Source: a virus (taxonomy: Duplodnaviria > Heunggongvirae > Uroviricota > Caudoviricetes). From it: a stretch of DNA of 25,327 nucleotides. The stretch lies in IMG/VR virus record IMGVR_UViG_2671180357_000004, positions 1-25,327 of that record; one strand, 5' to 3'. Below, piece by piece: positions 2 through 841 of this stretch (position 1 is its first letter; every line of letters starts with the position of its first letter). A model generated the notes under the pieces. It was not told the origin of the DNA and ran no database searches. It saw only the letters and a list, made by a program, of their open reading frames with translations. The translations under genes were made by a program, and so were the position numbers.

Positions 2-841
2 ATTCAGGGGGCCAGTCTAGTTCCGCATGTTTATCCACGAGATGTATCACCTATTTTAATACCAATCCCCTGCCCGGATAATCCGGAAAAATCCCTTGCC
101 ATCCAGTCTGAAATCGTTCGGATTCTGGATAAATTTACTGCACTTACCGCTGAGCTTACCGCTGAGCTTAACATGCGTAAAAAACAGTACAACTACTATC
201 GCGACCAGTTGCTGAGCTTTGAACAGGGTGAGGTTGAGTGGAAGACGTTGGGAGAAGTAGCCAAAATACAACGTGGGGCATCCCCCAGGCCAATTGTTAA
301 TTATCTTACTGAACAAGGAAATGGTATCCCATGGATTAAAATCGGAGATACTATCCCCGGCTCTAAATACATTGACAAAACCTTACAAAAAATAACTGCA
401 GAGGGTGCCCAAAAATCGCGAATCTTGAACCCCGGTGATTTCGTCATTTCTAACTCTATGAGCTTTGGCAGACCATATATTTTAAGGATAACCGGAGCTA
501 TCCATGATGGATGGGCATCAATCAGCAATTTTGGTGAAAAATTAAATGCTGATTATCTGTATCACTATCTTTCATCAAAAAAGGTGAAAAATTATTGGGA
601 AAGTAAAATCAATAGCGGGTCGGTCAGTAACTTGAATGCAGATATTATAAAAACATTACCAGTGCCATTGCCTGATAAACAGAAACAAGAGCGAATATCT
701 GCTCTGCTCGATAAATTCGACACCCTGACCAACTCCATCACCGAAGGTCTCCCGCGTGAAATCGAGTTACGCCAGAAACAATACGAGTACTATCGTGATT
801 TACTGTTCAGTTTCCCGAAACCTGAAACTGTCAGTAATTAA
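2..841 (+). CDS. hsdS: Type I restriction-modification specificity subunit HsdS, 3' portion (gene begins upstream of window); Type IC architecture
   Basis: Frame open from window edge to TAA at 839-841. Central conserved region ...SEIVRILDKFTALTAELTAELNMRKKQYNYYRDQLLSF and C-terminal conserved repeat REIELRQKQYEYYRDLLFSF are typical of HsdS; immediately followed by hsdR. Confidence 0.85.
   Translation: MQGASLVPHVYPRDVSPILIPIPCPDNPEKSLAIQSEIVRILDKFTALTAELTAELNMRKKQYNYYRDQLLSFEQGEVEWKTLGEVAKIQRGASPRPIVNYLTEQGNGIPWIKIGDTIPGSKYIDKTLQKITAEGAQKSRILNPGDFVISNSMSFGRPYILRITGAIHDGWASISNFGEKLNADYLYHYLSSKKVKNYWESKINSGSVSNLNADIIKTLPVPLPDKQKQERISALLDKFDTLTNSITEGLPREIELRQKQYEYYRDLLFSFPKPETVSN
146..169 (+). 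repeat. Tandem 12-bp in-frame repeat ACCGCTGAGCTT x2 (encodes TAEL-TAEL) in the HsdS central spacer
   Basis: Direct reading: 146-157 and 158-169 identical, in the hsdS frame. Confidence 0.9.

Follow-up and report, generated by a model that had tools for sequence, protein, structure and literature searches.

The window, by which we mean the whole 25,327-bp contig CXXS01000089.1 of an E. coli draft assembly (GCA_001268285.1), carries near one end the two-copy form of the TAEL repeat in helix D1 of a Type IC restriction-modification specificity subunit (HsdS). We consider it highly probable that this ruler lies in an hsdS fragment cut by IS2 within the first target-recognition domain (TRD1), and that it is most likely inoperative. 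The TAEL repeat is a classic protein 'ruler' that fixes the gap of a bipartite DNA recognition site; the feature is textbook biology and involves no new mechanism. Once it is recognised, one can predict from sequence to which spacing class an uncharacterised Type IC allele belongs. The small survey described below adds that alleles with two units are about as frequent as those with three, and that natural alleles which are otherwise identical can differ by a single unit.

The repeat and the gene that contains it

Positions 146-169 hold exactly two copies of the 12-bp unit ACCGCTGAGCTT, arranged head to tail, as the first-pass annotation had reported. The local order is ...AAATTTACTGCACTT ACCGCTGAGCTT ACCGCTGAGCTT AACATGCGT..., and Tandem Repeats Finder delimits the array as 143-170 (period 12, 2.3 copies, 100% matches), the extra fraction of a copy being due to the CTT that precedes the first unit. 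The hsdS frame is open from 2 to 841 (stop codon at 839-841), so that the two units are read as TAEL TAEL, and the repeat lies in the central conserved region (helix D1), which links the end of TRD1 to TRD2. In the 25.3-kb window it is the sole perfect tandem duplication with a period of 6-30, and a tandem duplication of equal length appeared in none of 200 dinucleotide-preserving shuffles. The published primers for deletion of the R124 repeat, accgctgagcttaacatgcg and ctgcacttaccgctgagctt (PMC10644984), match exactly at 158-177 and 138-157, which identifies the 12-bp unit here with the R124 DNA unit. Between LDKF and R(K/Q)KQY the window translation has 13 residues in D1 and 17 in D2; with three units this stretch of D1 has 17 residues, the same as D2. 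The features discussed are listed here.

1-19, no strand assigned: outer tip (19 nt) of the IS2 left inverted repeat, reading as the reverse complement of TAGACTGGCCCCCTGAATC, from identity to an IS end and to the published IRL
20-841, + strand: 3' fragment of hsdS, Type IC, from its translation, alignment to 7bst_A and 99% identity to P0004/P0005
20-58, + strand: last residues of TRD1
59-256, + strand: central conserved region D1
146-169, + strand: two tandem ACCGCTGAGCTT units (TAEL TAEL) in helix D1, an EcoR124I-like short state, from sequence, translation and literature
173-841, + strand: longest canonical open reading frame in the hsdS fragment (222 aa, MRKKQY...), its ATG lying 3' of the TAEL repeats
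257-706, + strand: TRD2
707-841, + strand: C-terminal conserved region D2 and stop codon
962-4078, + strand: hsdR, intact, 1038 aa, EcoR124I type, from alignment to 2w00_A and the Pfam domains HSDR_N, ResIII and EcoR124_C
4133-4613, - strand: remnant of an SSU5_095-like DNA methyltransferase, the first 115 codons being 97% identical to SSU5, after which it stops

The 279-residue hsdS translation aligns with HsdS of EcoR124 (PDB 7bst_A, 404 aa) at E=3.5e-78, and from IPIPCPDNPEKSL... to ...LTAELTAELNMRKKQYNYYRDQLLSF, repeat included, the two are identical without gaps. Both conserved regions, the central (IPIPCPDNPEKSLAIQSEIVRILDKFTALTAELTAELNMRKKQYNYYRDQLLSF) and the C-terminal (LDKFDTLTNSITEGLPREIELRQKQYEYYRDLLFSFPKPETVSN), are identical to those of EcoR124 HsdS. 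TRD2 shows weak similarity to the EcoR124 TRD2 in the same alignment, and is a different recognition domain. HsdR aligns over residues 1-1038 to residues 1-1038 of EcoR124I HsdR (2w00_A) with 2262 bits. In the window hsdS is followed by hsdR, and the position of hsdM would fall past the IS2 break; the closest relatives, the complete plasmids L001, L002 and L007, have the order hsdM-hsdS-hsdR. With an EcoR124I-type HsdR, D1 and D2 on either side of a variable TRD2, and the TAEL repeat within D1, the system is, judged by its sequence, a Type IC (EcoR124-family) restriction-modification system. Historically, Type IC was defined by subunit complementation and antibody cross-reactivity with EcoR124 (PMC3874165). 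The intact counterpart of the window gene is probably of the P0004/P0005 type, intact 396-aa E. coli HsdS proteins that are 99% identical over the fragment and share the end of TRD1 (VPHVYPRDVSPILIPIP). An intact HsdS of 396 aa is also encoded by the closest plasmid, L001.

The same DNA unit, an identical helix and an adjoining EcoR124-type HsdR uphold the earlier proposal that the repeat is the homologue of the TAEL determinant of EcoR124I and EcoR124II. The alignment to EcoR124 HsdS that the first-pass annotation had suggested as a check came out identical in D1, D2 and the two-copy register, but divergent in TRD2. Target-recognition domains unlike those of EcoR124 had been named as grounds for refutation; this test is invalid because the TRDs are the variable modules of the family. 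The likeness to EcoR124I extends over the conserved regions of HsdS, the 12-bp unit, its two copies, the full-length HsdR and the order hsdS then hsdR. The two systems differ in TRD2 and in the end of TRD1 (the remainder of the window's TRD1 is missing), and the window hsdS is cut by IS2. They differ also in carrier, an SSU5-like phage-plasmid in the window and the conjugative plasmid R124 for EcoR124I. EcoR124II, EcoDXXI and EcoprrI belong to the same family and have the same repeat as the window, with three units in contrast to its two, and natural three-unit forms with the window's TRD2 exist as well, for example in L002.

Two further irregularities were seen in related genes. At the D1-TRD2 boundary, P0014, P0016, P0034 and P0064 read FKEGEGEVEWK instead of FKEGEVEWK; the extra GE is a second small in-frame duplication just 3' of D1, which might affect spacing too. 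In H127 (NZ_CM143910.1) and H226 (NZ_CP049149.1) the central-region matches fall in two pieces ~480-490 bp apart, which suggests an insertion or duplication within hsdS.

Probable interruption of hsdS by IS2

Every hsdS match, in plasmids and genomes, starts at base 20 (codon V) and never earlier, and a search of complete E. coli genomes with bases 1-75 for TRD1 found nothing that matches bases 1-19 as hsdS. The lack of such a match led to the identification of IS2. The sequence of bases 1-19 (GATTCAGGGGGCCAGTCTA) recurs unchanged at L004:925-943, where an IS3-family element ends, and its reverse complement is the tip of the left inverted repeat published for IS2 (TAGACTGGCCCCCTGAATCTCC...; PMC3299598). 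The L004 element is common and multi-copy, being found in 4763 of 5426 E. coli genomes with a median of three copies per genome. It is therefore most likely that IS2 inserted in TRD1 of hsdS, behind the codon that corresponds to G133 in the intact protein of L001, and that the contig ends at base 1 because of this junction. The evidence for the junction itself is 19 bases, located where a contig of a draft assembly ends. The opposite contig end, 25309-25327 (GGTGATGCTGCCAACTTAC), consists of the initial 19 nt of the inverted repeat of IS1, and the same sequence occurs at L005:1733-1751 beside an annotated IS1 transposase. The SSU5-like backbone is thus interrupted as well, by IS1 at 25309-25327, and both breaks of the contig are bounded by repeats. 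The 19-nt IS stubs at the two ends fit the k-1 overlap of a short-read assembler at true repeat boundaries.

Members of the same gene family are interrupted by IS3-family or IS1 elements in the complete E. coli genomes L004, L005 and L009. As in the window, these IS-inactivated hsdS pseudogenes keep a 3' fragment with the TAEL array. However, they have other insertion sites and IS types, and two of them carry five units. The window holds no uninterrupted hsdS with two TRDs, the criterion for a functional Type I system, and a functional S subunit is most likely absent unless another copy exists elsewhere in the genome. IS2 may be present in part of the culture only, or an intact second copy may exist elsewhere. 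The first-pass annotation had described the repeat as a built-in switch; for this genome that description is contradicted by the IS2 IRL tip at 1-19 and the start of hsdS homology at base 20. Since hsdS is broken by IS2 in this isolate, no specificity is to be assigned.

Predicted spacing of the recognition site

Engineered HsdS subunits with 1-4 repeats were reportedly described by Gubler and Bickle in 1991. The effect of the repeat on spacing is documented for natural enzymes. [quoted passage not shown] This bears out what the first-pass annotation had stated of the pair, namely two versus three copies, a 1-bp change in the spacer and unequal crossing-over. EcoDXXI and EcoprrI have three TAEL units and N7 sites, hybrid enzymes show the predicted shift in the gap when the number of TAEL units is altered, and the methylated adenines lie at an interval of 7 nt in EcoR124I, compared with 8 nt in three-unit enzymes; according to the same review, three units are an apparent optimum (PMC3874165). 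Deletion of one TAEL unit from EcoR124II shifted the phage-defence pattern as expected (PMC10644984).

In the EcoR124 family, D1 and D2 of a Type IC subunit make up an antiparallel coiled coil that keeps the two TRDs apart. Each added 12-bp unit extends D1 by four residues and shifts the half-sites 1 bp further from each other, as between the N6 site of EcoR124I and the N7 site of EcoR124II. Changes in unit number would arise when identical 12-bp copies mispair on slipped strands or cross over unequally, a route suggested by the pattern of variants described in the next section.

By this reasoning the intact form of the window allele would be a short form with an EcoR124I-like 7-nt interval between methylated adenines. 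This interval corresponds to N6 only if the half-sites have 3 + 4 bases with the methylated positions of EcoR124I (GAA/RTCG). The number of N positions depends on the lengths of the half-sites; the methylation interval is the invariant quantity of the family. N6, the form predicted by the first-pass annotation, is not to be read from copy number alone, and it cannot be asserted here because TRD2 differs from that of EcoR124I and TRD1 lies off the contig. Assignment of the TRD2 half-site through the PDB relatives 1yf2, 5ybb and 3okg was dropped, these being too distant and uncharacterised, and no homologue with an established specificity turned up.

Copy-number variation among natural alleles

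Four pairs or triplets of otherwise identical alleles differ in unit number (1/2/3, 2/3 twice, and 2/5). Between the plasmids L002 (three units) and L007 (two units), whose alleles have the same TRD2 as the window, only a 12-bp unit differs, hsdM, hsdS and the first 1.5 kb of hsdR being without substitution; the L002 HsdS protein equals P0027 (140 contigs) plus one TAEL. The chromosomal alleles L010 (two units) and L011 (three units) are identical in hsdS DNA except for one unit, and for this allele a one-unit protein, P0140 (7 contigs), equals the two-unit P0136 (225 contigs) minus one TAEL. In L004 (five units) and L009 (two units) the chromosomal hsdS has the same IS3 truncation, and a single substitution separates the two over 3 kb.

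The units themselves have synonymous variants that differ by lineage, ACCGCTGAGCTT versus ACAGCAGAGCTT, at two positions, and they are identical within an array. Identity within arrays together with difference between lineages points to concerted evolution, a signature of repeated gain and loss. Arrays of the ACAGCAGAGCTT type lie at L010:1585-1608 and L011:1588-1623, compared with 146-169 in the window, and one unit of L004 has GAA in place of GAG.

The frequency of each state was surveyed in evenly spaced samples of 60 records per collection, with unit number inferred from match length and six E. coli cases verified by sequence.

Complete E. coli genomes (60): two units, 31; three units, 24; four units, 1; five units, 2; undetermined, 2
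Plasmids (60): two units, about 30; three units, 27; four units, 0; five units, 1; undetermined, 2

The two-unit state is thus an ordinary one, and two- and three-unit forms are both common and roughly equal in these samples. Among the best protein matches, all of the E. coli clusters with the window's TRD2 have two units, and no three-unit form is found in the best 120. This absence is not taken to mean that three-unit forms are rare, because the checked three- and four-unit sequences of L002, L011 and L006 are missing from that protein collection. At least 13 chromosomes of one lineage (H62-H74) have an identical match span, L004 among them with five verified units, which argues for stability of the tract on epidemiological time scales.

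The tract is therefore mutable on an evolutionary time scale, and high-frequency phase variation goes beyond these data. Of the earlier description 'phase-variable', the part that stands is that copy number varies among otherwise identical alleles; a tract within an expressed gene, which the term implies, is not present here, hsdS being interrupted by IS2. Phasevarion Type I hsdS/hsdM genes offer a parallel, a repeat tract of changeable length within a Type I specificity gene (PMC7383803). However, phasevarion tracts are long runs of short units that undergo high-frequency slippage, usually with on/off switching by frameshift, whereas the window tract consists of two in-frame 12-bp copies in which a change alters spacing and not expression.

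Longer arrays were also observed in E. coli, of five units at L004:2588-2647 and L005:2564-2623 and of four at L006:2582-2629. All three systems are inactivated, hsdS being cut by an IS3-family element or IS1, or hsdM carrying a frameshift. Arrays in the five intact systems checked by sequence have two or three units. In this small sample, inactivation is found in 3 of 3 systems with 4-5 units versus 1 of 6 with fewer.

A tentative extension, which we hold to be possible but doubtful, is that TAEL number is a naturally operating low-frequency contingency switch in Type IC cassettes common to E. coli/Klebsiella phage-plasmids (SSU5-like and P1-like) and chromosomes, with versions of the same allele of 1-3 units in circulation, slippage homogenising the units, and arrays drifting to 4-5 units only after the system has died. 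Were such drift indeed restricted to dead systems, selection would confine working enzymes to 1-3 units, and if the switch is real the window allele would belong to that population as a member killed by an IS.

A separate observation concerns the distal part of hsdR in L002 and L007. Columns 4422-5982 of their alignment, the last 1.6 kb of hsdR, hold 62 substitutions, and the 4.4 kb of the operon before them hold none. The pattern suggests a recombination patch, which would make hsdR a mosaic.

Alternative explanations

The identification of the fragment as an inoperative one has to be weighed against an intact and functional hsdS, in which the 19 IS2 bases would stem from faulty assembly or from a minority variant, and the determinant, with its two copies, would be operative and switchable to three. 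HsdR is of full length, hsdS has an open frame for the rest of its length, with 99% identity to intact alleles, the closest plasmid has an intact subunit, and copy number does change in nature, all of which agree with this explanation. However, the homology breaks off precisely where IS2 ends, the contig stops exactly 19 nt into an IS at its other end too, as expected for contigs truly bounded by repeats, and IS interruptions of the same gene are present in the complete genomes L004, L005 and L009. An intact gene is accordingly judged unlikely.

A truncated gene might instead be expressed. Half-subunits of Type IC that act as homodimers are documented (EcoR124I delta50, EcoDXXI deltaN/deltaC and NgoAV; PMC3874165), and the reading frame is open across the IS2-hsdS junction, so that a C-terminal half-subunit (D1-TRD2-D2) could be envisaged, forming a homodimer of palindromic specificity with a gap set by TAEL number. 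However, no in-frame ATG, GTG or TTG lies between base 2 and 172; the first is the ATG at 173, which is 3' of the repeat, and a product begun there would lose most of D1. When the hsdS frame is read back into IS2, using the IS sequence of L004, 11 codons pass, none of them a canonical start, before a TGA is met, and the transposase gene of IS2 is directed away from hsdS. A promoter and terminator scan of 1-1100 gave nothing above chance, with no promoter-like site on the + strand upstream of 173. We regard such a half-subunit as very improbable, and under the preferred reading, an hsdS fragment cut by IS2, the repeat is most likely untranslated and does not act as a switch in this isolate. That the duplication is a chance or neutral tandem repeat without effect on specificity is suggested by its short length of two copies and by nothing else. 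The shuffles gave no comparable repeat, position and unit are identical to those of the experimentally characterised R124 repeat, and copy number is the sole difference between several otherwise identical alleles. With homology and published experiments both against it, we treat this explanation as refuted, its probability being close to nil.

Genomic context

From 4133 to 25308 the window is 93% identical to the Salmonella phage-plasmid SSU5, with the backbone genes nrdAB, thyX, folA, sbcCD-like, RNase H, Ant and repA. The Type IC cassette is carried as cargo by an SSU5-like phage-plasmid. The SSU5_095-like methyltransferase, a protein of 561 aa in SSU5, is reduced here to a remnant that abuts the right edge of the hsd cassette, and most of the methyltransferase native to the phage-plasmid seems to have given way to the cassette. 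A truncated gene occurs at a similar place in L001. In the P1-like plasmids L002 and L007 the same cassette family is found beside phd/doc, next to hsdM. The occurrence of this family in both SSU5-like and P1-like plasmids makes it a cargo common to two phage-plasmid families. A literature search for Type I systems in SSU5-like phage-plasmids returned nothing relevant.

Two clusters of ~21-bp iteron-like repeats with the core CCACTATAGAGAG are present within 22915-23442, at 22926-23039 and 23309-23442. Just downstream of them lies a RepA-like gene (23479-24534), the counterpart of SSU5_069. The region 22915-23442 is probably the plasmid replication origin and control region.
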